NCBI GenBank assembly: GCA_017859785.1 | Contig: JAFMMJ010000001.1 | Coordinates: forward strand, 9,618-73,617 | Reading direction: 5' to 3' | From: Ilumatobacteraceae bacterium | GTDB taxonomy: Bacteria; Actinomycetota; Acidimicrobiia; Acidimicrobiales; Ilumatobacteraceae | DNA length: 64,000 nucleotides | Shown here: positions 35,534-55,914 of the stretch, one piece after another | Position numbering within the stretch: position 1 is the first letter of the stretch | Layout of the letters: each line of letters opens with the position of its first letter | The notes under the pieces: generated by a model | Told to the model about the DNA's origin: nothing | The model's input: the letters and a program-made list of their open reading frames with translations, nothing else | The model's database searches: none | Position numbers and translations under genes: made by a program

Positions 35534-36232
35534 TCAGCCGGCGAGCGGTGAGGCCAACCGACTGGTGACGGCCTCGCGAACCTGATCGTCGAAGCTGCGC
35601 ACGTGCGCCTCGACGAGCGCGGCGACACGATCGGCGTCGCCCACGCGGAAACCATCGAGGATCTCCCGGTGCTCGTCGACGGCGTGACGAGTGTCGGCCA
35701 CCTCGGCGAGATACATGTGCCACACCCGGTCGCTCTGCGCGTAGAGCATGTCGAGCGTGTCGGTCATGAACCGGTTGCCGGCGGCTGACCAGATGAGTTC
35801 GTGGCAGCGGCGGTCGACCTCGAGGAGATCCTCGGGGGCGAGTCCGGGTTGATCGGCGCCAGCGATGACCTCGGCCATCTCGCTCCAATCAGCGGCCGAT
35901 CCGCGGTGCGCGGCGAGCCTCGCGGCGTAGGGCTCGAGGATCGCTCGGGTCTCGTACAGCATCGAGAGTTCGTCGACATCGATGGAGGAGACGAACATGC
36001 CGCGCCTTGGGATGACGGTGACGAATTGTTCCCGGGCGAGACGCTGGAGCGCTTCGCGGATCGGGGTGCGGCCGATACCGAACTCAGCCTGGAGCGTCTC
36101 CTCACGGAGCACGTCGCCGGGCGCCAGATCGAGTCGGACGATCCGTCGGCGGAGGCTCTCGTAGGCCTGTGTACTCAGTGGGATATTCGTGATACATTGA
36201 TGATATATCAGGTCCGCTCGGGTCGCACCCAC
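35534..36232 (-). CDS. GntR-family transcriptional regulator (FadR/FCD subfamily)
   Basis: Winged HTH (YESLRRRIVRLDLAPGDVLREETLQAEFGIGRTPIREALQRL) and a C-terminal FCD domain. The GTG start at 36232 is uncertain because codons 8-17 lie in an AT-rich palindromic patch. Confidence 0.85.
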   Translation of the reverse strand: MGATRADLIYHQCITNIPLSTQAYESLRRRIVRLDLAPGDVLREETLQAEFGIGRTPIREALQRLAREQFVTVIPRRGMFVSSIDVDELSMLYETRAILEPYAARLAAHRGSAADWSEMAEVIAGADQPGLAPEDLLEVDRRCHELIWSAAGNRFMTDTLDMLYAQSDRVWHMYLAEVADTRHAVDEHREILDGFRVGDADRVAALVEAHVRSFDDQVREAVTSRLASPLAG

Positions 36233-36285
36233 CGGGTTCGATACGAGAGACCGGACACCGATTCCACAACAACAGGGGGATTCCC

Positions 36286-38823
36286 GTGGGTGACACCGTT
36301 CCCAGCAACGCCAAGTGCGTGATCATCGGAGCCGGCATCGTCGGCAACTGCCTCGCCGGGCACCTCGCCCGGCTCGGCTGGAAGGACATGGTCCTGCTCG
36401 ACAAGGGTCCGCTTCCCAACCCAGGCGGCTCTACCGGACACGCCTCCAACTTCATCTTCCCCGTCGACCACAACAAGGAGATGGCCCTCCTCGGCGTCCA
36501 GTCGGCCAACCAGTACCGCGATGTGCAGCGCAGCGTCGACTCCGGCGGCATCGAGGTCGCCCGCACCGAGGAGCGTTGGCAGGAACTGCAGCGCCGCATG
36601 ACCAGCGCCCGCGCCTGGGGAGTCGAGGCCCGTCTGCTCACCCCCGCCGAGGTCAAGGAACTCGTCCCCTTCATCAACGAGGACGTCATCCTCGGCGGCT
36701 TCTACTGCCCCACCGTGTCCGTCGTCGACTCCCTCGACACCGGAACCATCTTCCGCAACGAGGCCATCGACAAGGCCGACCTCAAGGTGTTCGCCAACAC
36801 CGAGGTCATGACGCTCGAGACCGTCGACGAGCCGGCCACCGGCCGCAAGCGCATCTCGGCCGTCGTCACCGACAAGGGTCGCATCGAGGCCGAGTACGTC
36901 GTCATCGCCTGCGGCTGCTGGTCGAACCGCATCGCCAATATGGCCGGCGCCACCATCCCCCTCGTGCCCGCCGTCCACCAGATGGCCGACGTCGGCCCGA
37001 TCGACGTGCTCGTCGAGACCAACTCCGAGATCGACTACCCGATCGTCCGCGACATGGACACCTTCTGCTACGAGCGTCAGTCATCGGGCTCGATGGAGGT
37101 CGGCTCCTACGCCCACCGTCCGATCCTGCATCACCCCGACTCGATCCCGTCCAACGAGGAAGCGGCCCTCTCCCCCACCGAGATGCCCTTCACACAGGAC
37201 GACTTCGACCCGCAGATGGAGCAGGCCATCGAACTGATGGACATGCTCGGCGACGCCGAGATCAAGTACGCCATCAACGGACTGCTCAGCCTCACCCCCG
37301 ATGCCATGCCCTGCCTCGGCGAGACCGTCGAGGTGAAGAACCTCTGGTCGGCCGCGGCCGTCTGGGTGAAGGAGGGCCCCGGAATGGCTCAGGTGGTCGC
37401 CGAGTGGATGACCTACGGCTACCCGCGCGTCATCGACCCGCACGGCGCCGACATCGCACGCTTCTACAACCACGAGCGCAACGACGAGCACATCTGGGCT
37501 CGCGCCTCCGAGCACTTCAACAAGACCTACGGCATCGTTCACCCGGCCGAGCAGTGGGAGTCGCGACGCGCCCTGCAGACCTCGCCTTACTACTCGCGCC
37601 AGCAGGACCTCGGGGCCTTCTTCTTCCAGGCCCGCACCTGGGAGCGCCCCCAGTGGTACGAGTCGAACGCCGACCTCGTCGAGCGTTACAACGTCGCCGA
37701 CCGCGAAGCCGAATGGGACCGCCGCTGGTGGAGCCCGATCACTGTCGGCGAGCACCTCAACATGCGCGAGAACTGCGGCATGGTCGATCTCTCGGCCTTC
37801 CAGATCTTCGACCTCTCGGGCCCCGGCGCCGTTGAGTTCGCCGACTACCTGTCGGTCAACAAGATCGGCCCGGTTGGACGCGCCACGTACACCCCGTGGC
37901 TCACCCCCGACGCCGGCTTCCACTCCGACCTCACCATGCAGCGCATTGGCGAGGACACCGTGCGCGTCGTGACCGGCGTGTTCGACGGAGGGCGTGACCT
38001 CGCCTGGATCCGCAACTACATGCCGACCGACGGCTCGGTGACCGTCACCGACCGCACCCTCGAGATCTCCACGCTCGGCGTGTGGGGACCGAACGCGCCG
38101 GCGCTCCTCGCCACGCTCACCTCGGCCGACCTCTCCCACGAGGGCTCCCCCTACGGCTCACTCATCGACGTCGACCTCGACTGCGGGGGCACGACGGTGC
38201 CCGCCAAGCTGTTCCGGATCTCCTACGTCGGCGACACCGGCTGGGAGATCTACGTCGACTGGAACAACGGCCCGGCCCTGTGGGACGCCCTCATGGCCAA
38301 CGGTCGCGAGGCGTTCGGCCTGCGGCCGACCGGCGGCGGGGTGTACGGCACCTCGGGTCGCCTCGAGAAGGGCTACCGACTCCAGGGCGCCGAACTCGAG
38401 AGCGAGTACAACCCGCTCGAGGCGGGCCTCGCCCGGCCGAAGGTGAAGTCCGCTGACTTCATCGGCAAAGCCGCCTACCTCGCCGCCCGCGAGAAGGGCG
38501 AGCCCGAAGTGGTCATGTGCACCATGACCGTCGAGGACTCGACCGATTCCGAGGGGCGTGTCCGCTACCTCCAGGGCGGCAACGAGCCGATCCTCGACGC
38601 CGACGGCAACCGCATCACCGACAGCCACGGCCGCGTGTCCCGCGTGACCACCGCGGGCTACGGCCCGTCGATCGGCAAGCAGATCCTGATGGGGTATCTG
38701 CCCCGCGAACTCTCCGCCCCCGGCACCGATCTCAAAGTCATGTACTTCAACGAGATCTACCCGATCAAGGTGGTCGGCACCGGCGGGCCGTTCGATCCCG
38801 ACGACAGCCGTCTGAAGGGCTGA
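36286..38823 (+). CDS. dimethylglycine/sarcosine dehydrogenase-family flavoenzyme (FAD oxidoreductase fused to a GcvT-like folate-binding aminomethyltransferase domain)
   Basis: 845 aa. N-terminal FAD fold KCVIIGAGIVGNCLAGHL and a C-terminal GcvT-type domain. etfB and etfA follow directly. Confidence 0.88.
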   Translation: MGDTVPSNAKCVIIGAGIVGNCLAGHLARLGWKDMVLLDKGPLPNPGGSTGHASNFIFPVDHNKEMALLGVQSANQYRDVQRSVDSGGIEVARTEERWQELQRRMTSARAWGVEARLLTPAEVKELVPFINEDVILGGFYCPTVSVVDSLDTGTIFRNEAIDKADLKVFANTEVMTLETVDEPATGRKRISAVVTDKGRIEAEYVVIACGCWSNRIANMAGATIPLVPAVHQMADVGPIDVLVETNSEIDYPIVRDMDTFCYERQSSGSMEVGSYAHRPILHHPDSIPSNEEAALSPTEMPFTQDDFDPQMEQAIELMDMLGDAEIKYAINGLLSLTPDAMPCLGETVEVKNLWSAAAVWVKEGPGMAQVVAEWMTYGYPRVIDPHGADIARFYNHERNDEHIWARASEHFNKTYGIVHPAEQWESRRALQTSPYYSRQQDLGAFFFQARTWERPQWYESNADLVERYNVADREAEWDRRWWSPITVGEHLNMRENCGMVDLSAFQIFDLSGPGAVEFADYLSVNKIGPVGRATYTPWLTPDAGFHSDLTMQRIGEDTVRVVTGVFDGGRDLAWIRNYMPTDGSVTVTDRTLEISTLGVWGPNAPALLATLTSADLSHEGSPYGSLIDVDLDCGGTTVPAKLFRISYVGDTGWEIYVDWNNGPALWDALMANGREAFGLRPTGGGVYGTSGRLEKGYRLQGAELESEYNPLEAGLARPKVKSADFIGKAAYLAAREKGEPEVVMCTMTVEDSTDSEGRVRYLQGGNEPILDADGNRITDSHGRVSRVTTAGYGPSIGKQILMGYLPRELSAPGTDLKVMYFNEIYPIKVVGTGGPFDPDDSRLKG

Positions 38824-38826
38824 GCC

Positions 38827-39591
38827 GTGCGGATCCTCGTCTGCGTGAAGCGGGTACCCGCGCCCGGTTCCAAGATCAACATCACCGCCGACGGCCAACG
38901 CGTCGACGATGCCAACCTCGGTCACACCACGAGCCCCCACGAGGAGTGCGCGGTGGAGGCCGCGAGTCAACTCATCGAGGAGCACGGCGGTGAGGCCGTC
39001 GTGCTCACCCTCGGCGGAGTCGAGGCCGAGGAACAACTCCGTTACGCGGTCAGCGTTGGCATGCACAGCGGAGTGCTCCTCGCCACCGACGGCGGCGAAT
39101 GGGATCCGCAGCGCACCGCCGCGGCGATCGCGAGCGCCATCACCAACCTCGAGGCGAGCGGCGGACCCTTCGATCTCGTGCTGTTCGGCAACGAGTCGGC
39201 CGATTCGAGCGGTTTCCAGGTCGGCATCCGGGTGGCCCACACCCTCGGACGCCCCATGGTGAACGGCGCCAAGGGCCTCCGCGTCGACGGCGGTACCGCC
39301 CACGTCGAGCGTGAGGCCGACGCCGGACGCGAGGCGTACGAGCTGCCGCTTCCGGCCGTGGTCGGCGTGAAGGAGGGCATCAACCTGCCTCGCTACCCGA
39401 CCATGAAGGGACGTCTCGCGTCGAAGAAGGCCGGTGTGGTCACCGTCGAGCCCGCCGGGGAAGCCGGTGGACTCGCCATGGTCACGTTGAAGCCACCGCC
39501 GGAGCGAACCAACGAGACCGTCATCCTCGGCAACGGCCCCGAGGCCGCCGCAGCGGTCGTCGACGTACTCGAAGAGATCGGAGTCCTGTGA
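38827..39591 (+). CDS. etfB: electron transfer flavoprotein, beta subunit
   Basis: MRILVCVKRVP... is the canonical EtfB N-terminus. 254 aa. Confidence 0.9.
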   Translation: MRILVCVKRVPAPGSKINITADGQRVDDANLGHTTSPHEECAVEAASQLIEEHGGEAVVLTLGGVEAEEQLRYAVSVGMHSGVLLATDGGEWDPQRTAAAIASAITNLEASGGPFDLVLFGNESADSSGFQVGIRVAHTLGRPMVNGAKGLRVDGGTAHVEREADAGREAYELPLPAVVGVKEGINLPRYPTMKGRLASKKAGVVTVEPAGEAGGLAMVTLKPPPERTNETVILGNGPEAAAAVVDVLEEIGVL

Positions 39592-40553
39592 TGGAAGGCA
39601 CCACGCTCGTCGTCATCGAACACGACCGAGGCGCACTGGCTGAGGCGTCCCTTGAGGCCTTGGCCGCCGCACGCGCTCTCGGCACCCGCGTCGAGGCGCT
39701 CACGATCGGCGCCGACGCCGACGGACTCACCGACACCCTCGCCGCCCATGGCGCCAGCACGCATCATCGCGCCCACCATGAGATGCTCACCGACTACGCC
39801 CCGGAGGCCTGGGGCGAGGTGGTCGCCGCGGCCGTGCGCTCGATGTCGCCGGCGGTGCTGATGGCTTGCGGGACCGACCGTGGCAACGAGGTGCTCGCCC
39901 AAGCCGCCGCCCGACTCGACCTCCCCTTCGCGGCGAACTGCACGGACCTCTCCCCCGGAGACACCCTCAACATGACCCGGCTGCGCTGGGGTGGTTCACT
40001 CCTCGAAGAGGCGACGCTCTCGGCGCCGATGTGGATCGTTTCGGTGGCCCATCACCTCCACGAGCCCTCCGAAGCGCCGACCGAGTGCTCCATCTCGGAC
40101 CTGCCGGTCGATCTCGACCCCTCACTCGCCCGCTCTCGGGTGACCGCCCGGGTCGAGCGCGAGGCCGGAGTCACCCTCTCGTCGGCCCCGGTGGTGGTCG
40201 GCGGCGGACGCGGAGTCGGCTCGCCCGAAGGTTTCGCTCCGCTCGCCGAACTCGCCGCCGAGCTCGGCGGGGTGGTCGGCTGCTCTCGAGCGGTCACCAA
40301 CAACGGCTGGCGAAGCCACACCGATCAGGTCGGCCAAACCGGCACGCGAATCGCGCCCGACGTGTACATCGCTTGCGGTATCAGCGGCGCGATCCAGCAC
40401 TGGGTGGGCGCCATGGCGTCGAAGAACATCATCGCCATCAACACCGACCCCCAGGCGAACATGGTCACCAAGGCCGGTCACGCCGTCATCGGCGACCTCC
40501 ACAAGGTGATCCCCGCGATCACCGAGGAGATCCGACGCCGCCGCGCCAGCTGA
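39588..40553 (+). CDS. etfA: electron transfer flavoprotein, alpha subunit
   Basis: The start overlaps the etfB stop. The C-terminal FAD-binding block is YIACGISGAIQHWVGM-like (YIACGISGAIQHWVGAMAS). Confidence 0.9.
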   Translation: MMEGTTLVVIEHDRGALAEASLEALAAARALGTRVEALTIGADADGLTDTLAAHGASTHHRAHHEMLTDYAPEAWGEVVAAAVRSMSPAVLMACGTDRGNEVLAQAAARLDLPFAANCTDLSPGDTLNMTRLRWGGSLLEEATLSAPMWIVSVAHHLHEPSEAPTECSISDLPVDLDPSLARSRVTARVEREAGVTLSSAPVVVGGGRGVGSPEGFAPLAELAAELGGVVGCSRAVTNNGWRSHTDQVGQTGTRIAPDVYIACGISGAIQHWVGAMASKNIIAINTDPQANMVTKAGHAVIGDLHKVIPAITEEIRRRRAS

Positions 40554-40566
40554 GCGGCGTCGAACG

Positions 40567-41457
40567 TCAGGCCAGCAGCTGCTCGTGCCAGAGGCGCGTG
40601 TCGGCCACCGAGTTGAAGGTGAACGAGTGGATCGCCTCAATGTCGAGCTCACCGGCGCACGCCGCCAACTCGACCACCATGTCGGTCGGGTCGAACCCGC
40701 CCGGTGACATGAGGGCCATCACCGTCGAACGGTTCTTCGACAGATAACGGAGCGAGGCTCCGATACCGAGGCGCGTGCCGACGGTCATCAGCCGGGTGCG
40801 GTCGACCACCCCGGGGAGCCCAAGCCGGATCGGCAGATGCATCCCGGCGGCGCGCTCGGCGCGCAACCAGTCGACGATTTTCTCGGTGTCGAAGCACATC
40901 TGAGTGGAGCACCACCCGTGCACCCCGGCCTCGTCGAGCACCGCCTGCTTGGCGAGGAGCTGCTCAGAGGCGACCGCGGCGTCGAACATGGCGTGACCAT
41001 CGGGGTACCCGGTGACGCCGATGGCCTTCATGCCGTGGTCGTGAGTCACGAGATCGCGCAGGAACGCCAGCGCCCCCTCATAAGGGCCGGCGGGCTCGGG
41101 CGCGTCGCCGGCGACGATGAACACCTCATCGACCCCTGACGACTTCAACCAGGAGGCGAGTTCCGCGGTGTGATCGGGACCCTCCACGAGTCGAGTAGCG
41201 ATATGCGGAACCGGCCGATGCCCGAGCGCCACGAGCCGGTCGGTGATCTCCCGAGTGGCCGGGATGCCCTTCGCCGGCGAGCAGGTCACCGAGACGTTCG
41301 CGCCAGGCGGCAGGTCATCGATGGCCTGCTCGACCGACTTCATCGGAATCAGCTCGTAATGGAGGCCGGTGACGAGTTCGCGCACGGCGGGGTCGTCGAC
41401 GCGGACAGCGGAGTCGCGACCGCGGCCAGGGATGAGTCGTTTGAGGGTGGTGAGCAC
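40567..41457 (-). CDS. metF: methylenetetrahydrofolate reductase family protein
   Basis: 296 aa with MTHFR TIM-barrel blocks (YELIPMKS..., VFIVAGD, CFD). GTG start with GAGAGGAG RBS. It is the last gene of the corrinoid methyltransferase operon. Confidence 0.8.
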   Translation of the reverse strand: MLTTLKRLIPGRGRDSAVRVDDPAVRELVTGLHYELIPMKSVEQAIDDLPPGANVSVTCSPAKGIPATREITDRLVALGHRPVPHIATRLVEGPDHTAELASWLKSSGVDEVFIVAGDAPEPAGPYEGALAFLRDLVTHDHGMKAIGVTGYPDGHAMFDAAVASEQLLAKQAVLDEAGVHGWCSTQMCFDTEKIVDWLRAERAAGMHLPIRLGLPGVVDRTRLMTVGTRLGIGASLRYLSKNRSTVMALMSPGGFDPTDMVVELAACAGELDIEAIHSFTFNSVADTRLWHEQLLA

Positions 41458-41469
41458 GTTCGCTCCTCT

Positions 41470-43035
41470 CTAGGCGAACTCGTCGGGGATCTCACCCCGG
41501 CGTCGCTCGACATATTCGGTCAGTTCCTCGGCGATCGCCTCGTCGAGCGGGGGCGGCTCATAGGAGGCGAGTTGCTCCTTCCAGATGCGGTTCGCGCGCT
41601 GGGCGGCATCGAGCCCTCCCTCCTCGGTCCACTGCTCGAAACTCGAGTTGTCCGAGGTCGTCGAGCGGTAGAAGGCCGACTCGAAGTTGGCGAGGGTGTG
41701 CGCCGTGCCGAGGAAGTGGTTGCCCGGCTCGTTATCGCGGATCGCGTCGACCGCCTGGCCGTTCTCCGAGAGGTCAAGGCCTTGCACGAGCTTGTGCATC
41801 GCGCCGAGTTGGTCGCAGTCGAGGATGAACTTCTCGTAGCCGATGGCGAGCCCACCCTCAAGCCAGCCCGCCGCGTGGAGCACGAAGTTGACTCCGCCAA
41901 GCACGGTCGGCATGAGTGTCGCCATCGACTCGTAGGCGGCCTGAGCATCGGGCAACTTAGAAGCGCACAGCGAGCCACCCGACCGGAACGGCACATTGAG
42001 TCGCCGGGCGAGGGCGGCAACCGTGTACAGCACGATCGCTGGCTCCGGAGTGCCGAACGTCGGTGCGCCGGTCTGCATCGACATCGACGAGGCGAACGAT
42101 CCGAACACGACCGGCGAGCCCGGCCGCACCAACTGCGCGAAGGTCATTCCAACGAGCGCCTCGGCGAGGGTCTGAGCCGCCACACCCGCCGGGGTGACGG
42201 GTGCCATCGCGCCGGAGAGAATGAACGGGGTGAAGATCGACGCCTGGTTGTTCTCGGCGTAGACCTCGGCGGCCTCGAGCATCGTCGCGTCCCACACCAG
42301 CGGCGAGGAGGCGTTGATCAGGCTGGTCATCACCGTTCGGTCGGCCAGATCGCCACCGAAGGCGATCCGGGCCATCTCCACGGAATCGGCGGCGCGCGAA
42401 CCAGCGGTCACCGAACCCATGAACGGCTTGTCGCTGTAGCGGAGATGCGCGTGCACCATGTCGAGGTGCCGCTTCGACACCGGCACATCGACCGGCTCGC
42501 ACACCGTGCCACCAGAGTGGTGGAGATACGGCGACATGTAGGAGAGGCGGACGAAGTTCTCGAAGTCGGCCAGCGTCGCGTAGCGGCGGCCGGCGTCGAG
42601 GTCGTGCACGAACGGTGAGCCGTAGTTCGGCGCGAACACCGTCGCGTCGCCGCCGATCTGCACGTTGCGTTCCGGGTTGCGGCCGTGCTGGGTGTAGATC
42701 GCTGGGGCAGTCGCGGTGACGATCGAGCGGCACAAACCCCTCGGGAATCGCACTCGCGTGCCATCGACATCAGCTCCAGCCGCTCGGAACCGCTCGATGG
42801 CGGATGGGTAGTCGCGGATCTCCACACCCACCTCGGCGAGGATGGTCTCGGCGTTGTGCTCGAGGAGCTCGAGGCCCTCAGACGACACGATGTCGAGCGG
42901 CGTGAGCGAGCGGGTGATGAACGCGTCCGCTCCCGTCGAAGCGGCAGCGCGGGCGGCTTTGCGGGCCGATCGCCCTCCCCCGCGGCGACCCGCTCGCTCG
43001 GAGCCGGTGTCAGTTGTGGTGTCGGCATCGGTCAT
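41470..43035 (-). CDS. MttB-superfamily (trimethylamine methyltransferase-like) methyltransferase, non-pyrrolysine type; quaternary-amine:corrinoid methyltransferase candidate
   Basis: 521-aa uninterrupted ORF with no internal TAG and MttB-family blocks throughout. The ATG overlaps the upstream stop (ATGA). Confidence 0.85.
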   Translation of the reverse strand: MTDADTTTDTGSERAGRRGGGRSARKAARAAASTGADAFITRSLTPLDIVSSEGLELLEHNAETILAEVGVEIRDYPSAIERFRAAGADVDGTRVRFPRGLCRSIVTATAPAIYTQHGRNPERNVQIGGDATVFAPNYGSPFVHDLDAGRRYATLADFENFVRLSYMSPYLHHSGGTVCEPVDVPVSKRHLDMVHAHLRYSDKPFMGSVTAGSRAADSVEMARIAFGGDLADRTVMTSLINASSPLVWDATMLEAAEVYAENNQASIFTPFILSGAMAPVTPAGVAAQTLAEALVGMTFAQLVRPGSPVVFGSFASSMSMQTGAPTFGTPEPAIVLYTVAALARRLNVPFRSGGSLCASKLPDAQAAYESMATLMPTVLGGVNFVLHAAGWLEGGLAIGYEKFILDCDQLGAMHKLVQGLDLSENGQAVDAIRDNEPGNHFLGTAHTLANFESAFYRSTTSDNSSFEQWTEEGGLDAAQRANRIWKEQLASYEPPPLDEAIAEELTEYVERRRGEIPDEFA

Positions 43036-45044: not shown

Positions 45045-45056
45045 GTCAGGAATCGC

Positions 45057-45956: not shown

Positions 45957-45973
45957 GGGTTCTCCTCGGAGGA

Positions 45974-46360: not shown

Positions 46361-46361
46361 C

Positions 46362-46963: not shown

Positions 46964-46967
<4 letters not shown>
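46362..46967 (-). CDS. DUF1638-domain protein
   Basis: 201 aa. The start overlaps the corrinoid-protein stop (ATGA). Pattern LACGALARE...YLPAPLHNRP...GYADCGTGG is typical of DUF1638. Confidence 0.7.
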
Positions 46968-47689
<722 letters not shown>

Positions 47690-48665: not shown

Positions 48666-48684
48666 GTTCCTCCCTGATCTCCCA

Positions 48685-48705
48685 CTGTTCCACAATGTGG
48701 AACAG
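48685..48705. promoter_or_regulatory. perfect 21-bp palindrome upstream of iclR (candidate IclR operator)
   Basis: CTGTTCCAC-AAT-GTGGAACAG lies 20 nt upstream of the iclR ATG. Confidence 0.6.
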
Positions 48706-48739: not shown

Positions 48740-49621
48740 TTAGAACGCGCCGAGCATCCTCGCGGCGGCGAGGGTGTTCTCGAGCAGGCAGCCGATCGTC
48801 ATCGGACCGGTCCCACCGGGCATCGGCGTGATCGCGCCTGCGACCGCTTGCACTCGATCGAAATCGACATCGCCGACGATGCCGTCAGCCGTGCGCGACA
48901 CGCCGACATCGAGCACCGCGGCTCCTGGTCGGACATGGTCGGGACCGATCATGTGCGCCTGGCCGGCGGCCGCGACGATGATGTCGGCCTCGCGACACAC
49001 CTCGATCAGATCGGATGTGCGCGAGTGGGCAAGGGTGACCGTCGCATCGCAGCCCCGTCGACCGAGCAGCAGCACCTGAGGGAGCCCGACCAAGGTCGAC
49101 CGCCCAACGACGACCGCTCGACGACCGGAGGTCTCGATTCCGTAACGCTCGATCAGGCGCATGACACCGAGCGGCGTGCAGGGCACATGCCCGGGCAAGT
49201 CACGAACGAGGCGACCGAGTGAGCGCTCGGTGAGCCCGTCGACATCCTTCTCCGGTGGCAACAGTGCGAGGACCGGCTCCGGGTCAAGATGCGCTGGCAG
49301 AGGGAGCTGCACGAGGATCCCGTGCACCGTCGGGTCAGCCACGAGGGCGGCCACCTGCTCCTCCACCTCAGCCTGGGTGGCCGACTCCGGAAGTTCGACC
49401 CCACGCGAGACGAGACCGGCCTCCTCGGCCTTGCGGTGCTTCATCCGCACATAGATCTGGCTCGGCTTGTCGGCGCCGACGAGCACCGTCGCGAGGCACA
49501 CCTCAGGCGAGCCCGCCGCCTCAATCTCAGACCGGAGGCGCGACACCGTCTCATCGCGCAGACGGTTGCCGTCGAGGAGGATCGCCCCTCCGGCTGTGCG
49601 CTCGACGCTGTCGGAGGTCAC
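48740..49621 (-). CDS. folD: bifunctional methylene-THF dehydrogenase / methenyl-THF cyclohydrolase
   Basis: FolD blocks (LATVLVGADKPSQIYVRMK, GILVQLPLP, VVVGRSTLVGLP, PMPGGTGPMT). The start overlaps the fhs stop. Confidence 0.92.
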   Translation of the reverse strand: MTSDSVERTAGGAILLDGNRLRDETVSRLRSEIEAAGSPEVCLATVLVGADKPSQIYVRMKHRKAEEAGLVSRGVELPESATQAEVEEQVAALVADPTVHGILVQLPLPAHLDPEPVLALLPPEKDVDGLTERSLGRLVRDLPGHVPCTPLGVMRLIERYGIETSGRRAVVVGRSTLVGLPQVLLLGRRGCDATVTLAHSRTSDLIEVCREADIIVAAAGQAHMIGPDHVRPGAAVLDVGVSRTADGIVGDVDFDRVQAVAGAITPMPGGTGPMTIGCLLENTLAAARMLGAF

Positions 49622-51315
49622 GAAAGGCCCACGATCTGGCCGTCGTCATCGATGTCGATGCGGGCGGCCGCGGGCGAGGAGGCGAGACCGGGCATAGTGC
49701 TCATGTCGCCGCAGATCGGGTAGACGAAACCAGCACCGACGCTCGCGCGAGCCTCGCGCACCGTCAGGGTGTGTCCGGTGGGCGCGCCCTTCAGGCTCGG
49801 ATCACCGGAGATCGACAGGTGCGTCTTGGCGATGCACACCGGCAGTCCTCCGAAGCCGTTGTCCTCGTAGTTCTGCAATTGGCGGCTGGCGGCTGCGGTG
49901 TAGTCGACACGCGCCGCGCCATAGATCGTGGTGGCGACCTTCTCGATCTTGGTCTTCAGCGGATCGGAGTCCTCATAGAGGAAGCCGAAGTCGCTCGGCT
50001 CCTCACACGCCTCGATGACCGCCTCGGCCAACTCGACCGCGCCCGCTCCCCCGTCGGCGAAGTGGGTGCACACAGCGACGCGCGCGCCGAGCGACTCGCC
50101 GAAACGTCGGATGGCCTCGTGCTCGGAGGGATGGTCGGTCGGGAAGGCGTTGATGGCGATCACCGGGGTGACACCGTGAGCCTTCACGTTCTCGACCTGC
50201 TTGCGTAGGTTCTCCGCTCCAGCCATCACGTCGTCCGGGTTCTCGGCGAGCAGGTCCTCGGGGAGGGCCTTGCCGGCGACGATGCGGTACTTGCCGGAGT
50301 GGGCCTTAAGCGCGCGGACCGTCGCCACGAGCACCGCGGCATCGGGGGTGAGTCCTGAGGCGCGGCACTTGATGTTGAAGAACCGCTCGGCCCCCATATC
50401 GGCGCCGAAGCCAGCCTCGGTGATGAGGTAATCGCCGCCGCGGATACCGATGAGGTCGCCGACGACGGAGGAGTTGCCGTGGGCGATGTTGCCGAACGGA
50501 CCGGCGTGGACGATCACCGGGGTGTTCTCGATCGTCTGCAACAGGTTGGGAGCCAAGGCGTCGCGCATGATCACCGACATCGAGCCGGCACCGTTCAAGT
50601 CCTCAGCGGTCACCGGACGGTTGTCGTTCGTGTAGCCGACCACGATGCGACCGAGACGCGCGCGGAGATCCTCAGCGGAGGTGGCGAGCGCGAGGATCGC
50701 CATGACCTCCGAAGCCGCGGTGATGTCGAAGCCGGTCTGCCGGGTCACCCCGTCCATTCGGCCGCCGAGCCCGATGACGATGTTGCGCAACGCGCGATCG
50801 TTCACGTCGAGCACGCGACGCCAGGTGATGTTGTTGAGGTCGAGTCCGAGTTCGTTGCCGTGATGGAGGTGGTTGTCGACCATCGCCGACAGCAGGTTGT
50901 GGGCAGCGGTTACCGCATGGAAGTCGCCGGTGAGGTGCAAGTTGAGCAGTTCCATCGGGATGACCTGGCTGTAGCCACCTCCGGCCGCTCCACCCTTGAT
51001 GCCGAAGGTCGGCCCCATCGAGGGTTGCCGAAGCGAAAGGACCGCGTTCTTGCCGACATGAGACATCGCCTGGCCGAGACCGACCGAGGTGGTCGTCTTG
51101 CCCTCACCGAGCGGGGTCGGGGTGATGGCGGTGACGACGACGTACTTCGCCTTCGGCCGATCGGCCAGTTCGTCGATCGCGTCGAGGCTGATCTTGGCCA
51201 ACTCGGTGCCGTAGGGCCGGAGCAGGTGCTCTCCGATCCCCATCTTCGCCGCGACCTCGGGCATCGGCTTCGGAACGGCGGCTCGGGCGATCTCAAGATC
51301 GGACGGAAAACTCAT
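49618..51315 (-). CDS. fhs: formate-tetrahydrofolate ligase
   Basis: FTHFS signatures (TPTPLGEGKTTT, GGAAGGGYSQV, HAGPFGNIAHGNSS). 565 aa. Confidence 0.95.
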   Translation of the reverse strand: MSFPSDLEIARAAVPKPMPEVAAKMGIGEHLLRPYGTELAKISLDAIDELADRPKAKYVVVTAITPTPLGEGKTTTSVGLGQAMSHVGKNAVLSLRQPSMGPTFGIKGGAAGGGYSQVIPMELLNLHLTGDFHAVTAAHNLLSAMVDNHLHHGNELGLDLNNITWRRVLDVNDRALRNIVIGLGGRMDGVTRQTGFDITAASEVMAILALATSAEDLRARLGRIVVGYTNDNRPVTAEDLNGAGSMSVIMRDALAPNLLQTIENTPVIVHAGPFGNIAHGNSSVVGDLIGIRGGDYLITEAGFGADMGAERFFNIKCRASGLTPDAAVLVATVRALKAHSGKYRIVAGKALPEDLLAENPDDVMAGAENLRKQVENVKAHGVTPVIAINAFPTDHPSEHEAIRRFGESLGARVAVCTHFADGGAGAVELAEAVIEACEEPSDFGFLYEDSDPLKTKIEKVATTIYGAARVDYTAAASRQLQNYEDNGFGGLPVCIAKTHLSISGDPSLKGAPTGHTLTVREARASVGAGFVYPICGDMSTMPGLASSPAAARIDIDDDGQIVGLS

Positions 51316-51412: not shown

Positions 51413-51447
51413 GTTCCACAATACGGATTCATTCCAAGATGTGGAAC
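51413..51447. promoter_or_regulatory. two adjacent imperfect copies of the 17-bp operator in the fhs / formate dehydrogenase divergent region
   Basis: GTTCCAC-AAT-ACGGATT (51413-51429) and ATTCCAA-GAT-GTGGAAC (51431-51447). The outer arms are perfect matches to the iclR palindrome. Confidence 0.55.
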
Positions 51448-51478
51448 GATACACCGCTTCTCAACTAACCTAAACGTC

Positions 51479-53395
51479 ATGCCACGGCACCGCCACCAGC
51501 CTCTCGACCGCCTCACCACCCCACTCGTTCGGGAGAACGGCGCGCTCCGCCCCGCCACCTGGGACGAAGCCCTCGACCGGGCCGCCGAGGGATTCCGCCG
51601 CGCCGGTGGCGGTCAGTCAGTCGGTGTGTTCTCCTGCTCGAAGTCGACAAACGAGATGAACTTCATCGCGCAGAAGCTCGCCCGAGTCGCACTCGGTACG
51701 AACAACATCGACTCCTGCAACCGAACTTGACACGCTCCCTCGGTGGTCGGTCTGGCCGCCACATTCGGAGCGGGAGGAGGCACCTCCTCCTACGCGGAGG
51801 CCGAGGCCGCCGACGTCATCATCATGTGGGGCTCGAACGCCCGCAACGCGCACCCGATCTTCTTCCACCACGTGCTCACCGCCGTGAACAACGGCGCGCG
51901 CCTGTTCGTGGTCGACCCTCGACGCAGCGAGACGGCGCGCTTCGCTGACCGCTGGCTCGGACTCGAGGTCGGCACCGACATCGCGCTCTCCAACACGATC
52001 GCCCGCGAGATCATCCACGCCGGTCTCGCCCACACCGACTTCATTGAGCGGGCCACCAGTGGATTCGAGGAGTACGCCGCGTCGGTCGAGGAGTGGACCC
52101 TCGAGCGCGGTGAGTCGGTCACCGGCGTGCCAGCCGAAGCCATCCGAGAACTCGCCCACGCCTACGCCGGCGCGAAGGCCGCCCAGTTGTGCTGGACCCT
52201 CGGCATCACCGAGCACCACAACGGTGTCGACAACGTCCTCTCACTGTGCAACCTCGCCCTCCTCACCGGCCAGGTCGGGCGCTACGGCGCCGGACTCACC
52301 CCATTGCGCGGACAGAACAACGTCCAGGGAGGCGGCGACATGGGCGCGCTTCCCAACAAGTTGCCCGGCTTCCAAGACGTCACCGACGACGAGGCTCGAG
52401 CGAAGTTCGACGCGCGTTGGTCAGCGACCGTCCCACCGGAGAACGGCTGGCACCTCACGCAGATGTTCGACGCGATGGAGCGCGGCGACCTCACCTCGCT
52501 ACTCGTCATCGGCGAGAACCCGGCGCAGAGCGAGGCCGACGTCTCGCGGGCGATCGACCTGCTCTCCTCCCGCGATCACCTGGTCGTTCTCGACATCCAC
52601 ATGACCGGCACCGCCGAACTCGCCGACGTCGTGTTGCCGGGGAGCGCCTCATGGTGCGAATCGGATGGCACGGTCACCAACTCCGAACGTCGAGTGCAAC
52701 GCGTCCGCAAGGCCATCAACCCACCCGGCGAGGCCCGCGACGACATCGACATCCTGCTCGACCTCGCCGCCCGTCTCGGCCACGACTGGAACTACCGCGA
52801 TCACGAGGAAATCTGGGACGAGTTGCGGTCGCTGTCACCCATGCACGCCGGCATGCCGTGGTGGCGTCTCGAGGAACTCGGCGGCATTCAGTGGCCCTGC
52901 TATTCAGAAGACACGCTGGAGCCGCCCTTCCTCCACGGTCGCCTGTGGGCCGAGGACCCCGCCGAGCGCGGTCGACCCGCCCCGTTCGCCGTCGTCATCG
53001 ACGAGCCACCCGTCGAGGCCGTCGACGAGGAGTTCCCGCTCCGCCTCACCACCGGTCGACGTCTCGACTCGTACAACACCGGCGTGCAATCGGGCGGGTT
53101 CTCCTCGCCAAATCGCGCGGGTGAGACCGTCGACGTCTCACCTGGTGACGCTGACCGCCTCGGAGTCGCCAATGGCGAGATCGTCCGCGTGAGCTCGCGA
53201 CGCGGCGCGGTCGAGGCGCCGATCAGGATCGACCGGGGACTCCGCGACGGGCTGGTATTCATGACCTTCCACTTCCCCGATGAGGTCGATGTGAACCAGT
53301 TGACGATCGACGCCGTCGACCCCCGTTCGGGAACGGCGGAGTTCAAGGCTGCCGCTGTCCGTATCGACCGGATCACCCCGGCGGCGACAGGCTGA
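51479..53395 (+). CDS. formate dehydrogenase catalytic subunit, molybdopterin (bis-MGD) module only. The in-frame TGA at 51728-51730 is read as selenocysteine.
   Basis: ORFs 51479..51730 and 51743..53395 share one frame. The junction reads NNIDSCNRT-U-HAPSVVGLAATFGAGG, matching the CxR(V/L)-U/C-H-xPSVxGL active-site block of FdhF/FdhA. A SECIS-like hairpin follows. The start ATG has no obvious RBS. Confidence 0.8.
51731..51771 (+). promoter_or_regulatory. bacterial SECIS-like mRNA hairpin
   Basis: The upper stem GGTGGTC (51742-51748) / GGCCGCC (51754-51760) has the loop GGTCT and starts 11 nt after the TGA, the same spacing as in E. coli fdhF. The lower stem is GCTCC (51734-51738) / GGAGC (51767-51771). 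Confidence 0.65.
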
Positions 53396-53401
53396 GCAGA
53401 C

Positions 53402-55045
53402 ATGGAGGCAATCAAGCGGACGACCCCGGCATCCGATGCCGAGCGCGAGGCGATCGAGAGCGTGCTCGGGCCGTCCGACGACCGTCTCGGTCGCGACGCT
53501 GTCGCCGGTCATGTCGTCCGTGGGCAGCGGCACCTGCTGCTGCCTTGTCTCCACGCCCTCAATGACCGGATCGGCTGGATCAGCTCTCCAGCGATCGATC
53601 ACCTCGCCACGCGACTCGGCGCCTCCCCCGCCGAGATCCACGCGGTAGCCAGCTTCTACGGGCTCTTCTCTCTCAGCCCCCGTGAGCCCGTCCAGCGCCA
53701 CGTCTGCATCGACCTCGCCTGCCGGGCGGCCGGCGGGCCGACTGAACACAGCGTCGACCACGAAGCGCACCCCGCGCCCTGCCTCGGACTCTGCGACCGC
53801 GCCCCCGCCGCCATCACCATCGGCGGCCACGACCCCGAACCGGACCCCGCGTCCGCCGCCGTCGATCGCGCCGAGGACGACGTCCTGCTGCGGCGAGTCG
53901 GCGCGGGCGACCCGGTCGACCTCGACGCCTACCTCGCCGACGGCGGGTTCTCAGCACTCGAGCGCGCCCGAGATCTCGGCCCCGAGGGAATCATCAGCGC
54001 CGTCGAGGCCTCTGGACTCACCGGTCGGGGCGGAGCCGGATTCCCGACGGCCCGCAAATGGGACGCGGTCCGCACCCAGCCCGTCACCCCCCACCACCTG
54101 ATCTGCAACGCCGACGAGTCCGAACCGGGCACCTTCAAGGATCGGACCCTGATCGAGAACGACCCGTACGCCCTGATCGAGTCGATGGCGATCGCCTCGC
54201 TCGCCATCGGCTGCGAACTCGGGCGGGTATACCTGCGCGGCGAGTATCTCCGCGCCCACCTGACCCTGTCGACAGCCATCGAGCGCTGCCGCTCCGCCGG
54301 TTTGCTCGGAGCGTTGGCGGGCTTCGATATCGAGATCATCCGCGGCGCGGGCGCCTACATCTGCGGGGAGGAGACGGCGATCTTCAACTCCATCGAGGGA
54401 TACCGCGGCGAACCACGGAACAAGCCGCCGTTCCCGTTCGAGTCGGGGCTGTTCGGTGAGCCGACCGCGGTGAACAACGTCGAGACGTTGATGAACGTGC
54501 CCTCCATCATCGCCGAGGGCCGCCAAGCAGACCGCCGGCTCTTCTGCTTGTCGGGCGCCGTGCGCCGCCCCGGCGTCATCGAAGCGCCCATCGGCATCAC
54601 CCTCGGAGCGCTGATCGAGCGCGCGGGAGGTCTCCGTGAGGGCTCGGAGCTTCGCGCCGTCATGCTCGGCGGAGCCGCCGGCGGCTTCGCCGGTCCGGCC
54701 GACCTCGATCTTCCCCTCGATGACGCCCGACTCCGCGAGGTCGGGCTCACCCTCGGCTCCGGCGTCGTGATGGTCCACGATCAGCACGTCGACCTCGTCG
54801 ATCAATTGCGACGGATCGCCGCGTTCTTCCGCGACGAGTCCTGCGGGCAATGCGTCCCCTGCCGCGTCGGAACCGTCAGGCAGGAAGAGGCCATCGAGCG
54901 ACTCGCCTCCGGAACGGGCGAGGCCGACCTCTCACTGCTGCGCGATATCGCTGGCGCCATGCGCGACGCGAGCATCTGCGGTCTTGGTCAGACGGCGGCC
55001 AACGCGATCCAGTCGGCCGTCGTGCGGCTCGGGGTGCTGACATGA
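53402..55045 (+). CDS. NAD(H)-binding diaphorase subunit: fused NuoE-like [2Fe-2S] and NuoF-like FMN/[4Fe-4S] domains (FdsG-FdsB type)
   Basis: NuoE cysteines (VCIDLAC ... CLGLCDRAP). NuoF motifs GLTGRGGAGFPTARKW, ICNADESEPGTFKDR and ESCGQCVPCRVG. Confidence 0.88.
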   Translation: MEAIKRTTPASDAEREAIESVLGPSDDRLGRDAVAGHVVRGQRHLLLPCLHALNDRIGWISSPAIDHLATRLGASPAEIHAVASFYGLFSLSPREPVQRHVCIDLACRAAGGPTEHSVDHEAHPAPCLGLCDRAPAAITIGGHDPEPDPASAAVDRAEDDVLLRRVGAGDPVDLDAYLADGGFSALERARDLGPEGIISAVEASGLTGRGGAGFPTARKWDAVRTQPVTPHHLICNADESEPGTFKDRTLIENDPYALIESMAIASLAIGCELGRVYLRGEYLRAHLTLSTAIERCRSAGLLGALAGFDIEIIRGAGAYICGEETAIFNSIEGYRGEPRNKPPFPFESGLFGEPTAVNNVETLMNVPSIIAEGRQADRRLFCLSGAVRRPGVIEAPIGITLGALIERAGGLREGSELRAVMLGGAAGGFAGPADLDLPLDDARLREVGLTLGSGVVMVHDQHVDLVDQLRRIAAFFRDESCGQCVPCRVGTVRQEEAIERLASGTGEADLSLLRDIAGAMRDASICGLGQTAANAIQSAVVRLGVLT

Positions 55046-55914
55046 CAACGATCGACGGCACCGCTTCGGACACAGCGACGGTCGAGGCGATCATCGACGG
55101 GGTAACCGTTCGTGTGGCCGAAGGCACGACGATCCTCGACGCCTGCGGCGGTCGGGGATGCGGCATTCCCACCCTGTGCTACGGCGAGACGATCACCCCA
55201 CGCAACGCCTGCCGCGTCTGCATGGTGGAGGTGGAGGGCTCGCGCACCCTGGTTCCCTCCTGCTCGCGTCCGGTGACCGAGGGCATGGTCGTCACGACGC
55301 GTTCCGAGCGGATCGACCACTCGAGGCGGATGGTGCTCGAGTTCCTCGGCTCCTCGGTCGACCTCTCGCTCACCGACCATGTCGAAGAGTGGAACACCGA
55401 GTACGGCGCCGACCCGACGCGATACGGCTCAGAGGCCGCTCGAGTGGACGAGCCGGTTCGCATCGACAACGACCTCTACATCCGCGACTACTCCAAGTGC
55501 ATCCTGTGCTACCAGTGCGTCGACGCTTGCGGAGAGCAGTGGCAGAACAGTTTCGTGATCGACATCGCCGGACGGGGCTTCGACGCTCGGGTGTCGACCG
55601 AGCACGACGTCTCACTCCCTGATTCCGGATGTGTCTACTGCGGCAACTGCATCCAGGTCTGCCCGACCGGAGCGCTGATGTTCACCTCGGAGTACACCAT
55701 GCGCCAAGCGGGCACCTGGGACGAGTCGCGTCAGACCCAGGTCGACACGGTCTGCGGATATTGCGGGGTGGGCTGCAACCTCACCCTCCACGTGCAAGAC
55801 GACTCGATCGTGAAGGTGACCTCACCAGCCGACAGCGGCATCACGAGCGGCAACCTCTGCGTGAAGGGACGCTTCGGCTTCCAACACGCGCAGAACCGTC
55901 CCTCCGCCGACTGA
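55042..55914 (+). CDS. formate dehydrogenase alpha-subunit N-terminal Fe-S module, encoded as a separate gene ([2Fe-2S], two ferredoxin-type [4Fe-4S], and the molybdopterin-oxidoreductase Fe4S4 domain)
   Basis: Trimmed to ATG 55042 (ATGA overlap with the upstream stop). Cysteine motifs seen: LCYGE..ACRVCMV..SC, CILCYQCVDAC, CVYCGNCIQVCP and CGYCGVGCNL...CVKGRFGF. The protein ends exactly where the 51479 ORF's homology begins. Confidence 0.85.
   Translation: MTTIDGTASDTATVEAIIDGVTVRVAEGTTILDACGGRGCGIPTLCYGETITPRNACRVCMVEVEGSRTLVPSCSRPVTEGMVVTTRSERIDHSRRMVLEFLGSSVDLSLTDHVEEWNTEYGADPTRYGSEAARVDEPVRIDNDLYIRDYSKCILCYQCVDACGEQWQNSFVIDIAGRGFDARVSTEHDVSLPDSGCVYCGNCIQVCPTGALMFTSEYTMRQAGTWDESRQTQVDTVCGYCGVGCNLTLHVQDDSIVKVTSPADSGITSGNLCVKGRFGFQHAQNRPSAD

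Follow-up and report, generated by a model that had tools for sequence, protein, structure and literature searches.

A gene cluster at positions 35534-55914 of a 64,000-nucleotide stretch of contig JAFMMJ010000001.1 (hereafter the window), from an Ilumatobacteraceae bacterium (assembly GCA_017859785.1), is predicted to demethylate glycine betaine through a corrinoid relay to methyl-tetrahydrofolate (CH3-THF) and dimethylglycine (DMG) through a flavoenzyme to methylene-tetrahydrofolate (CH2-THF). The one-carbon (C1) unit would then be oxidised through a type-4-like methylenetetrahydrofolate reductase (MTHFR), FolD, formate-THF ligase (FTHFS) running in reverse, and a selenocysteine (Sec)-containing formate dehydrogenase (FDH). 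We assign this reading a probability of about 0.7. Sequence and comparison show the gene content, the intact domains, the key motifs, the conserved synteny and the Sec codon with its insertion element. Family relationships and synteny give good support to the relay from corrinoid to THF and to the oxidative direction, and we infer which substrate is used, which way the flux runs, what the DUF1638 and PF13769 proteins do and that the FDH assembles from three pieces. The cluster represents the known aerobic MtgBCD-type system, compactly arranged, in a phylum for which the searchable literature lacks it. Its most original features are the Sec-dependent, split and permuted FDH and a conserved PF13769 gene within the corrinoid operon.

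In the proposed pathway, the MtgB-like MttB protein would methylate the MtgC-like corrinoid protein in its Co(I) state, with glycine betaine or a closely related acidic quaternary amine as the methyl donor, and the pterin-binding methyltransferase would hand the methyl group to THF. Slippage of the corrinoid to the Co(II) state should be frequent in an aerobe, and the RACo-type activase, probably with the DUF1638 protein and perhaps with the PF13769 protein, would re-reduce it using ATP. The type-4-like MTHFR would convert CH3-THF to CH2-THF, while the flavoenzyme, which resembles DMG dehydrogenase/DMG oxidase (DMGDH/DMGO), would take the resulting DMG directly to CH2-THF and pass the electrons to its own electron transfer flavoprotein (EtfBA). 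FolD, then reverse FTHFS with a yield of ATP, and finally the Sec-containing, NAD-linked FDH would carry CH2-THF to CO2 and NAD(P)H. The GntR and IclR regulators would govern the two demethylase units. An earlier note on this DNA had proposed the same overall logic, from betaine to DMG and CH3-THF, then to CH2-THF, with all C1 units oxidised to CO2, and this scheme fits the model established genetically and proteomically for Ruegeria pomeroyi (PMC12478193).

The MttB homologue and its candidate substrate

Residues 18-517 of the MttB protein span the whole PF06253 model. Among solved relatives, the protein matches the Sinorhizobium meliloti protein 4YYC with 676 bits, the glycine betaine methyltransferase of Desulfitobacterium hafniense (2QNE/9YCE) with 400 bits, and the pyrrolysine-containing MttB 7XCL with 112 bits. 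The open reading frame (ORF) contains neither an internal stop nor an in-frame UAG, and Leu356 aligns with the pyrrolysine ('X') of the Methanosarcina barkeri enzyme 7XCL. The equivalog model of pyrrolysine-type MttB, TIGR02369, gives 257 bits against a cutoff of 525. From these matches we assign the protein to the non-pyrrolysine quaternary-amine methyltransferases of the MttB superfamily, as an MtgB-like member. An Rfam PYLIS_3 match within the gene (41871-41970, - strand; 37.5 bits against a threshold of 38) begins at the codon for Leu356; since that codon specifies leucine and no UAG is present, the match was rejected as a pyrrolysine signal and probably reflects coding-level homology rather than a functional element.

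In MtgB of D. hafniense, mutagenesis and a ligand-bound structure defined four betaine-binding residues, namely Y97 and F356, which make cation-pi contacts, and R312 and H348, which bind the carboxylate (PMC13080624). Three of the four are kept in the window protein as Y138, R351, and H387, while Gly395 occupies the position of F356. Four residues upstream of Gly395, Trp391 lies in an AGWLEGGL motif that is invariant across the clade and in 4YYC. Glycine betaine is the likeliest candidate substrate, because three of the four binding residues are kept, a DMGDH-Etf unit recurs in adjacency, and betaine-related genes neighbour the module in relatives.

The corrinoid relay and its accessory proteins

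The corrinoid-dependent set that the earlier note had described, consisting of MttB, a corrinoid protein, a methyl-THF:corrinoid methyltransferase and an activase, is indeed encoded. The corrinoid protein contains both the cap and the Rossmann B12 domains and carries the sequence DIHDIG, corresponding to the DxHxxG His-on motif, at residue 116. It scores best against the NCBIfam models of MtgC (201 and 171 bits) but reaches neither cutoff (201 versus 370). The pterin-binding protein exceeds the cutoff of NF005719, the model of methyl-THF:corrinoid methyltransferases (355.7 versus 259 bits).

The activase contains all four RACo Pfam domains, arranged as an N-terminal 2Fe-2S domain, a linker, a middle domain and a C-terminal ASKHA domain, and Cys38, Cys44, Cys47, and Cys92 form its 2Fe-2S motif. 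The AcsV model matches with 343 bits and the RamA model TIGR04270 with 108 bits (cutoff 500), both below their cutoffs. RamA combines an ASKHA domain with a C-terminal ferredoxin domain that holds two 4Fe-4S clusters, and no Fer4 domain was detected in the activase with Pfam. We classify the activase as RACo-type, outside the RamA subfamily, although it should work like RamA. Of the former description as an ATP-dependent RamA-like reductive activase, the reductive activase family is retained, and the RamA type is replaced on the basis of the N-terminal 2Fe-2S domain and the TIGR04270 score. The Etf of the cluster was considered as a supply of low-potential electrons for the activase and was dropped for lack of evidence.

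Two conserved accessory genes, encoding the DUF1638 and PF13769 proteins, had been overlooked. The DUF1638 gene occurs in 56 of 58 loci, and Cys9, Cys69 (in the motif ADCGTGG) and the pair His93-Cys94 are invariant across ten diverged sequences, one of them from Paracoccus. These invariant cysteine and histidine residues hint at a metal or cluster site. In Phaeobacter inhibens, genetic evidence connects a RamA-like protein and a DUF1638 protein with the reactivation of B12 for a split MetH (Price et al. 2018, PMC5764234); by analogy, the DUF1638 protein is probably an accessory factor linked to corrinoid reactivation. The PF13769 protein is present in 60 of 63 Acidimicrobiia corrinoid loci and missing from the Paracoccaceae and Paracoccus aminovorans loci. 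Its N-terminal half is basic and highly conserved, and its tail, ELLALEELDD, is acidic. Profile searches of PDB sequences with DUF1638 and PF13769 returned nothing meaningful. A single-sequence AlphaFold2 model of the DUF1638 protein reached a predicted local distance difference test (pLDDT) value of 47.3 and was discarded, and the model of the PF13769 protein, built from a 30-sequence alignment, was too poor for a fold search (mean pLDDT 49.5).

The flavoenzyme and the proposed oxidation of methyl-THF

The flavin/folate DMGDH-like enzyme with its own EtfBA, also noted before, is present with its DAO, FAO_M, GCV_T, and GCV_T_C domains. Its best solved relative is the Arthrobacter DMGO 1PJ5, matched over the full length with 430 bits; mammalian DMGDH gives about 260 bits. 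The enzyme is predicted to belong to the DMGDH/DMGO family with a GcvT folate-binding domain, and would convert DMG, possibly also sarcosine, together with THF to CH2-THF. Since its own etfBA genes adjoin it, the arrangement suggests a dehydrogenase that donates electrons to Etf rather than an H2O2-forming oxidase.

The 296-residue MTHFR-like protein is closest to S6MTHFR of Sphingobium lignivorans SYK-6 (7XG9/7XLF), with 126 bits to 7XG9 over residues 19-290, while ordinary MTHFRs give no more than 36 bits. S6MTHFR binds FAD, oxidises CH3-THF without using NADH, and defines a 'type 4' that is coupled with THF-dependent demethylases (PMC11868366). The window protein shares its catalytic residues (Glu21, Asp107, and Gln175 in S6MTHFR numbering), R78, and the demethylase neighbourhood; in 65 of 74 species loci the gene is a neighbour of MttB, a genomic coupling with a THF-dependent demethylase. 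In the type-specific regions, which are loop b2-a3 (L48, P49), helix a8 (F215, C219) and loop b8-a11 (P268, F269), only P49 and F269 are kept, the other four having changed (L48 to S, F215 to V, C219 to L, and P268 to T). Because of these four replacements, we call the protein type-4-like and claim no membership of type 4; it may form a separate sub-branch. FolD and FTHFS are canonical by their family matches. With MTHFR, FolD, FTHFS, and an NAD-type FDH identified by Pfam and NCBIfam, the earlier statement that every step from CH3-THF to CO2 is encoded stands.

A formate dehydrogenase with a predicted selenocysteine and a split alpha subunit

Gene callers break the gene of the FDH Mo-subunit into pieces of 83 and 550 amino acids, and the Mo-domain ORF in the ORF list starts at position 135 of the Fdh-alpha model. 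The in-frame upstream reading gives MPRH...NNIDSCNRT-TGA-HAPSVVGL, in which the TGA codon (51728-51730) falls at the Sec140 position of FdhH, i.e. at the Sec/Cys metal ligand (motif CNRT-U-HAPSVVGL). A hairpin resembling a selenocysteine insertion sequence (SECIS) occupies 51725-51779, with a minimum free energy of -22 kcal/mol. The Rfam model SECIS_3 matches over its whole length exactly at the TGA, with compensatory pairs, at a score of 24.4 bits that is far below the threshold of 63. Two further Ilumatobacteraceae loci (L009 and L011), with an FDH protein identity of 63-83%, retain the TGA together with the hairpin, and in the L006 and L011 assemblies the gene was called as a single product spanning the TGA, of 638 and 643 amino acids. 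The FDH is thus predicted to use selenocysteine. No selA, selB, selC, or selD gene is found in the window, whose only tRNAs are tRNA-His and tRNA-Lys. A selenocysteine FDH has already been reported in mycobacteria, so the use of Sec in an actinobacterium is not new in itself.

The N-terminal Fe-S part of the alpha subunit is a separate protein of 290 amino acids with one 2Fe-2S site, two 4Fe-4S sites and a Molybdop_Fe4S4 domain. It aligns with residues 21-305 of FdsA from Rhodobacter capsulatus, and the Mo-subunit starts at FdsA residue 307. The gene order is permuted to C-terminal piece, NuoEF, N-terminal piece, and the same order recurs in L009 and L011. The junctions are tight, with a gap of 6 nucleotides (nt) at one and, at the other, an ATGA start of the N-terminal piece that overlaps the NuoEF stop codon. 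The best 120 homologues of the N-terminal piece are all 274-307 amino acids long; stand-alone pieces extend down to about 41-59% identity, and fused alpha subunits of 770-980 amino acids appear at about 40%. As judged from these comparisons, the split and permuted alpha subunit is a conserved design and not decay. The 'NAD-type formate dehydrogenase' of the earlier note is therefore borne out in its modules and revised in its alpha subunit, which is encoded not by one gene but by two that are permuted, one of them with an in-frame TGA.

Conservation of the cluster and its origin

The assembly collection contains 138 blocks with a protein identical to the window MttB; the contigs examined are metagenome assemblies and metagenome-assembled genomes (MAGs). 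The host belongs to an Ilumatobacteraceae lineage (Acidimicrobiia, Actinomycetota) known from MAGs. A scan for MttB relatives with one genome per species yielded 343 genomes, and the loci of the best 80 of these were compared by tblastn with the 17 cluster proteins, with counts restricted to loci with enough flank. Nearly all of the best 80 genomes are MAGs of Acidimicrobiia recovered from lakes, rivers, groundwater, and soils.

The seven-gene core of MtgC, DUF1638, PF13769, pterin methyltransferase, RACo, MttB, and MTHFR is complete in 46 of 56 species loci, so that the clustering exceeds chance, and the individual core genes occur in 88-100% of loci. When only the 32 loci with 9 kb or more of flank to each side are counted, seven carry DMGDH-EtfBA and four carry FolD or FTHFS no farther than 9 kb from MttB, and the two are found together near MttB only in the closest relative. 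The FolD-FTHFS pair with the divergent FDH operon forms a separate conserved unit elsewhere, flanked by an OpuA-type ABC transporter in relatives. What had been called a '20-kb island' is thus the place where three modules meet, each conserved on its own. Co-occurrence across relatives, which had been put forward as a check, is seen for the corrinoid core, whereas the whole three-module assembly is confined to the closest relative.

The term 'island' itself does not hold, and 'gene cluster' is preferable. The GC content of the window is uniform (0.64-0.69), no integrase or transposase is present among the annotated window ORFs (by Pfam annotation only; direct repeats were not sought), and the cluster is flanked by the core genes recA, lexA, miaB, and nrdJ. 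The sole island-like feature is a pair of tRNA genes directly to the left of the cluster, tRNA-His(GTG) at 35313-35389 and tRNA-Lys(CTT) at 35444-35518 (+). The reading as a horizontally acquired genomic island was rejected on the basis of the uniform composition and the core-gene flanks.

Other loci carry additional genes beside the corrinoid module. In one Ilumatobacteraceae locus (L007; 12477-15354 and 20447-21566), these are a second MttB, a DAO-family oxidase, an ornithine-cyclodeaminase-like gene, and PutA, neighbours that may point to proline betaine; the occurrence of a second MttB in such company suggests that the family also uses other substrates. In another (L008; 1-4911), the neighbours of the module are an OpuAC binding protein and a GMC (choline-dehydrogenase-like) oxidoreductase. 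Outside the phylum, a Paracoccaceae MAG (OY769916.1; locus L091, 8146-11479) encodes an IclR-MtgC-MttB series whose proteins are 59, 81, and 79% identical to those of the window, while those of other Alphaproteobacteria (S. meliloti and Paracoccus plasmids) are only 61-64% identical. These values suggest a transfer of the corrinoid module between phyla.

Comparison with known systems

The earlier note described corrinoid-dependent systems of this type as characterised mainly in strict anaerobes, a view outdated since 2025 by work on the aerobe R. pomeroyi (PMC12478193). When grown on glycine betaine, this bacterium induces PF06253 proteins, the B12-binding MtgC, the pterin-binding MtgD, a RamA-like protein, a DUF1638 protein, MetF2, and the H4F pathway of C1 oxidation, and genetic evidence shows that its growth on betaine requires both MtgC and MtgD (Mausz et al., PNAS 2025, PMC12478193). 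Genes for later demethylation steps and for C1 oxidation often lie together with this set in other marine Proteobacteria, and mtgE is often not co-located with the MtgBCD genes; MtgBCD was described in Alpha-, Gamma-, and Deltaproteobacteria, and Actinomycetota account for 5% of ocean mtgC reads (PMC12478193).

Going by the published component list, all six components of the Ruegeria system occur at 40567-47689, namely MtgB, MtgC, MtgD, DUF1638, a second MTHFR that feeds THF-linked C1 oxidation, and a RamA-like ASKHA activase with a ferredoxin domain, and both hosts are aerobic. The genes form one operon here and are scattered in Ruegeria. The window cluster further differs in its host phylum, Actinomycetota (Acidimicrobiia), in the extra conserved PF13769 gene, in having no MtgE nearby, and in its direct junction with a split Sec-FDH. 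Plasmid IV of P. aminovorans (NZ_LN832562.1) carries the same core components within 8 kb, beside genes for the degradation of carnitine to betaine, with an MttB that is 64% identical; there, MTHFR is encoded by two genes (catalytic and 'MTHFR C-terminal domain'), PF13769 is missing, and gene order and orientation are different. The anaerobic MtgABC system of D. hafniense shares the three-component chemistry, and the window MttB matches its MtgB over nearly the full length (PMC13080624). In contrast to that system, F356 is replaced by Gly, the corrinoid protein stays below the MtgC cutoffs, the host is aerobic, and CH3-THF would go to a type-4-like MTHFR rather than into a Wood-Ljungdahl or anaerobic-respiration context.

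The flavoenzyme has the same four-domain architecture as A. globiformis DMGO (1PJ5) and mitochondrial DMGDH; with its own etfBA, it would donate electrons to Etf like the mitochondrial enzyme. The FDH contains the same NuoE, NuoF, NuoG-like, and bis-pyranopterin guanine dinucleotide (bisPGD) modules as FdsGBA of R. capsulatus (6TG9) and Fdh1AB of Methylorubrum extorquens (7E5Z/7VW6). NuoE and NuoF are joined in a single gene, and the beta subunit of M. extorquens Fdh1 has a similar NuoE-NuoF fusion. Unlike in these enzymes, the alpha subunit is divided at a point equivalent to FdsA residue 306, directly after Molybdop_Fe4S4, the order is C-terminal piece, NuoEF, N-terminal piece, and the predicted metal ligand is selenocysteine. 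For alignment with the solved enzymes, Sec was replaced by Cys, the residue that FdsGBA and Fdh1AB presumably carry at this position.

A literature search returned no relevant account of an Ilumatobacter betaine methyltransferase or of an Acidimicrobiia selenocysteine FDH. A bolder joint proposal has two parts. The FDH would be an undescribed variant, NAD-linked and Sec-dependent in an aerobe, with an alpha subunit cut after Molybdop_Fe4S4 and halves permuted around NuoEF by an operon-level circular permutation via duplication and deletions, in a layout conserved in Ilumatobacteraceae; and the lineage-typical PF13769 protein, with the DUF1638 protein, would keep the corrinoid active in oxygen. 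We hold this combination only tentatively, at somewhat less than even odds.

Alternative interpretations

Several points weigh against the proposed pathway. The betaine-binding F356 is lost to Gly395, and the specificity of D. hafniense MtgB involves further determinants (PMC13080624). Four of the seven S6MTHFR residues compared differ in the MTHFR-like protein (L48S, F215V, C219L, and P268T), and among these C219 matters for the activity of S6MTHFR (PMC11868366). The PDB matches of EtfB and EtfA do not separate bifurcating from non-bifurcating types, the FDH would have to assemble from a split alpha subunit, and the lineage is known mainly from MAGs. Genes for a betaine transporter, sarcosine oxidase or dehydrogenase, the P, H, and L proteins of glycine cleavage, and the serine cycle were not found among the annotated window ORFs, and therefore the route of the carbon skeleton is incomplete here. 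The claim of a 'complete route' accordingly applies to the C1 unit and not to the window as a whole, which lacks a betaine transporter, sarcosine demethylation, glycine cleavage, and MtgE. Finally, MtgC and MtgD of Ruegeria double as a split methionine synthase (PMC12478193), and a partly biosynthetic role is conceivable here too.

Several other readings use the same genes. The machinery could act on a different quaternary or tertiary amine (proline betaine, carnitine, gamma-butyrobetaine, choline or phosphocholine, or an unknown compound), with the DMGDH-like enzyme working on the product of that reaction or independently. Such a reading, which we regard as unlikely though far from negligible, draws on the half-kept aromatic pair that would hold the betaine nitrogen, on the fact that R312 and H348 are common to MttB-superfamily members with differing substrates, on the second MttB beside DAO, ornithine-cyclodeaminase-like, and PutA genes in relatives, and on the assignment of Ruegeria MtgB by proteomics alone. 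Glycine betaine is favoured over these compounds by the recurrence of a DMG oxidase/dehydrogenase homologue with its own Etf beside the MttB orthologue, by the OpuAC betaine-binding-protein and choline-dehydrogenase-like neighbours in relatives, and by the identity of the strongest functionally defined relative of MttB, a glycine betaine enzyme. It is improbable that the corrinoid module serves mainly as a split cobalamin-dependent methionine synthase of the P. inhibens kind, to which the THF genes would supply CH3-THF. The corrinoid protein, the pterin-binding subunit, the RACo-like activase, and DUF1638 are the same four component types as in the split MetH of that organism, R. pomeroyi mutants in MtgC and MtgD are methionine auxotrophs, and about 70% of marine genomes with MtgBCD lack MetH. 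However, no homocysteine-binding subunit (PF02574, MtgE) is present among the annotated window ORFs, the operon includes an MttB gene and an MTHFR nearest to the oxidising type, and it adjoins the catabolic partners FolD-FTHFS-FDH and DMGDH-Etf. A dual role in catabolism and methionine synthesis is possible and would be compatible with the demethylation pathway.

The direction of C1 flow can also be read in reverse, from formate or CO2 to formyl-THF and on to methylene- or methyl-THF, in a reductive-glycine-like or methyl-synthesis mode. FDH, FTHFS, and FolD are reversible and catalyse the first steps of formate assimilation, and the flavoenzyme holds a GcvT-like domain; even so, we find this very improbable, since the MTHFR is nearest to a CH3-THF-oxidising enzyme that does not use NADH, C1 units would enter from both the methyl-donating MttB and the DMG-type demethylase, genes for the glycine-cleavage P, H, and L proteins or acetyl-CoA synthase do not occur among the annotated window ORFs, and the family, as represented by cultured Ilumatobacter, is aerobic and heterotrophic. 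Within the window alone, the FDH could pass for a decayed remnant, its alpha subunit interrupted by a stop and its N-terminal part displaced to 1.6 kb downstream of the C-terminal part; a nonsense TGA and a rearrangement would then have broken the subunit, and the cluster would end at formate. The position of the TGA exactly at the catalytic Sec/Cys site, the SECIS-like hairpin that follows it with compensatory changes, the retention of both at an FDH identity of only 63-83%, the stand-alone state of all of the best 120 homologues of the N-terminal piece, the tight junctions, and the single TGA-spanning products in L006 and L011 make such decay scarcely credible. The pathway from glycine betaine and DMG to CO2 remains the reading that we prefer.

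Gene map, regulation and genomic context

Given the high GC content of the window, genes were picked by third-position GC and then checked against Pfam and NCBIfam. Every gene named in the earlier note was found in its place, with strong matches in the frame indicated by third-position GC. The region contains 17 genes in four transcription units (Table 1), with operon-like spacing of -4 to 17 nt within each unit. The GntR/FCD regulator forms unit 1 by itself on the - strand, and unit 2, entirely on the + strand, runs from the flavoenzyme through EtfB to EtfA. Unit 3 (-) comprises, in the order of transcription, FTHFS, FolD, IclR, and, after a gap of 217 nt, the corrinoid protein, DUF1638, PF13769, the pterin-binding methyltransferase, the RACo-type activase, MttB, and the MTHFR-like gene. 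Unit 4 is the FDH operon (51479-55914, +).

Table 1. Genes of the cluster, with their coordinates in the window and the matches on which each assignment is based
Feature	Coordinates	Strand	Matches and remarks
GntR/FCD-family regulator	35534-36232	-	PF00392 71.8 bits, PF07729 85.8 bits; divergent from the DMGDH-like gene, 53-nt gap
DMGDH/oxidase-like flavoenzyme	36286-38823	+	DAO 149, FAO_M 50, GCV_T 195, GCV_T_C 40 bits
EtfB	38827-39591	+	PF01012 90.9 bits
EtfA	39588-40553	+	ETF 100.8, ETF_alpha 108.1 bits; 4-nt overlap with etfB
MTHFR-like, final gene of the corrinoid operon	40567-41457	-	Pfam MTHFR 26.7 bits (weak)
MttB, predicted MtgB-like non-pyrrolysine methyltransferase	41470-43035	-	PF06253 733.5 bits, model 1-500
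RACo-type activase (predicted)	43032-45044	-	Fer2 30, RACo_linker 48, Raco_middle 155, RACo_C_ter 276 bits
Methyl-corrinoid:THF methyltransferase, MtgA/MtgD-like	45057-45956	-	Pterin_bind 98 bits; NF005719 355.7 bits (cutoff 259)
PF13769 ('virulence factor') small protein	45974-46360	-	PF13769 66 bits
DUF1638 protein	46362-46967	-	PF07796 83.8 bits
Corrinoid (B12-binding) protein, MtgC-like	46964-47689	-	B12-binding (PF02310) 94.5, B12-binding_2 (PF02607) 58.4 bits
IclR-family regulator	47907-48695	-	IclR_C 109.6, HTH_IclR 60.1 bits; 217-nt gap to mtgC
FolD (methylene-THF dehydrogenase/methenyl-THF cyclohydrolase)	48740-49621	-	THF_DHG_CYH_C 190.5, THF_DHG_CYH 110.9 bits
FTHFS (formate-THF ligase)	49618-51315	-	PF01268 837 bits; NF010030 815 bits (cutoff 652)
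FDH catalytic Mo/W-bisPGD subunit, without Fe-S domains of its own	51479-53395	+	Fdh-alpha model 135-672, 525 bits downstream of the TGA
NuoE-NuoF fusion, FDH diaphorase subunit (2Fe-2S, FMN/NAD(H) site, 4Fe-4S)	53402-55045	+	2Fe-2S_thioredx 58, Complex1_51K 143, SLBB 40, NADH_4Fe-4S 84 bits
Stand-alone N-terminal Fe-S part of FDH alpha	55042-55914	+	Fer2_4 65.5, Fer4_7 36.6, Molybdop_Fe4S4 59.4 bits

The two regulators travel with their units. The GntR/FCD regulator accompanies DMGDH-EtfBA in other species loci at 59-71% identity, and an IclR regulator is found upstream of mtgC in many related loci, including one from Paracoccaceae. A scan for promoters and terminators gave counts no higher than in shuffled sequence; the gap between IclR and mtgC holds one promoter-like site with an extended -10 element, at 47854-47825, which is not significant. 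No cobalamin riboswitch was detected in the whole window at Rfam gathering thresholds, nor at 35000-56500 with E<=1, and no gene for B12 synthesis or a BtuCDF-type transporter is present among the annotated window ORFs, as had been reported before. THF and glycine riboswitches were likewise sought at Rfam gathering thresholds and E<=1, and none was found.

The genomic context described earlier was also recovered, with NrdJ at 14195-17209 (-), a P450 at 152-1543, GlpD, and an acyl-CoA dehydrogenase all present in the window. Beside the P450 and a thymidine kinase, where the surroundings otherwise look aerobic, lies a two-subunit 2-oxoacid:ferredoxin oxidoreductase (POR/POR_N/PFOR_II and a subunit binding thiamine pyrophosphate; 2661-5664, +), which could be a source of low-potential electrons. 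A PatB-type C-S lyase, an enzyme dependent on pyridoxal phosphate (55940-57202, -), is convergent with the end of the FDH operon at a distance of 25 nt. Farther on, two overlapping tandem ORFs (57821-58420 and 58414-58911, +) each encode a Flavodoxin_2 fold resembling NAD(P)H quinone reductases, and the pair may be tandem paralogues or a single frameshifted gene.

Biological implications

The Ilumatobacteraceae, to which the freshwater acIV lineages belong, occur widely in lakes, rivers, soils, and coastal water. Should the proposed pathway be correct, members of this family would consume glycine betaine by a cobalamin-dependent route, and the aerobic MtgBCD pathway, recently recognised in marine Proteobacteria, would reach into Actinomycetota as well as into freshwater and soil. 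These bacteria would then depend both on B12, through NrdJ and MtgC, and on selenium, through the Sec-FDH, a dependence that bears on micronutrient cross-feeding. The compact gene set would be convenient for reconstitution, by which the roles of the DUF1638 and PF13769 proteins and the means of keeping a Co(I) enzyme active in air could be addressed. The split, permuted Sec-FDH would, in turn, represent a natural experiment on the divisibility of the FDH alpha subunit.

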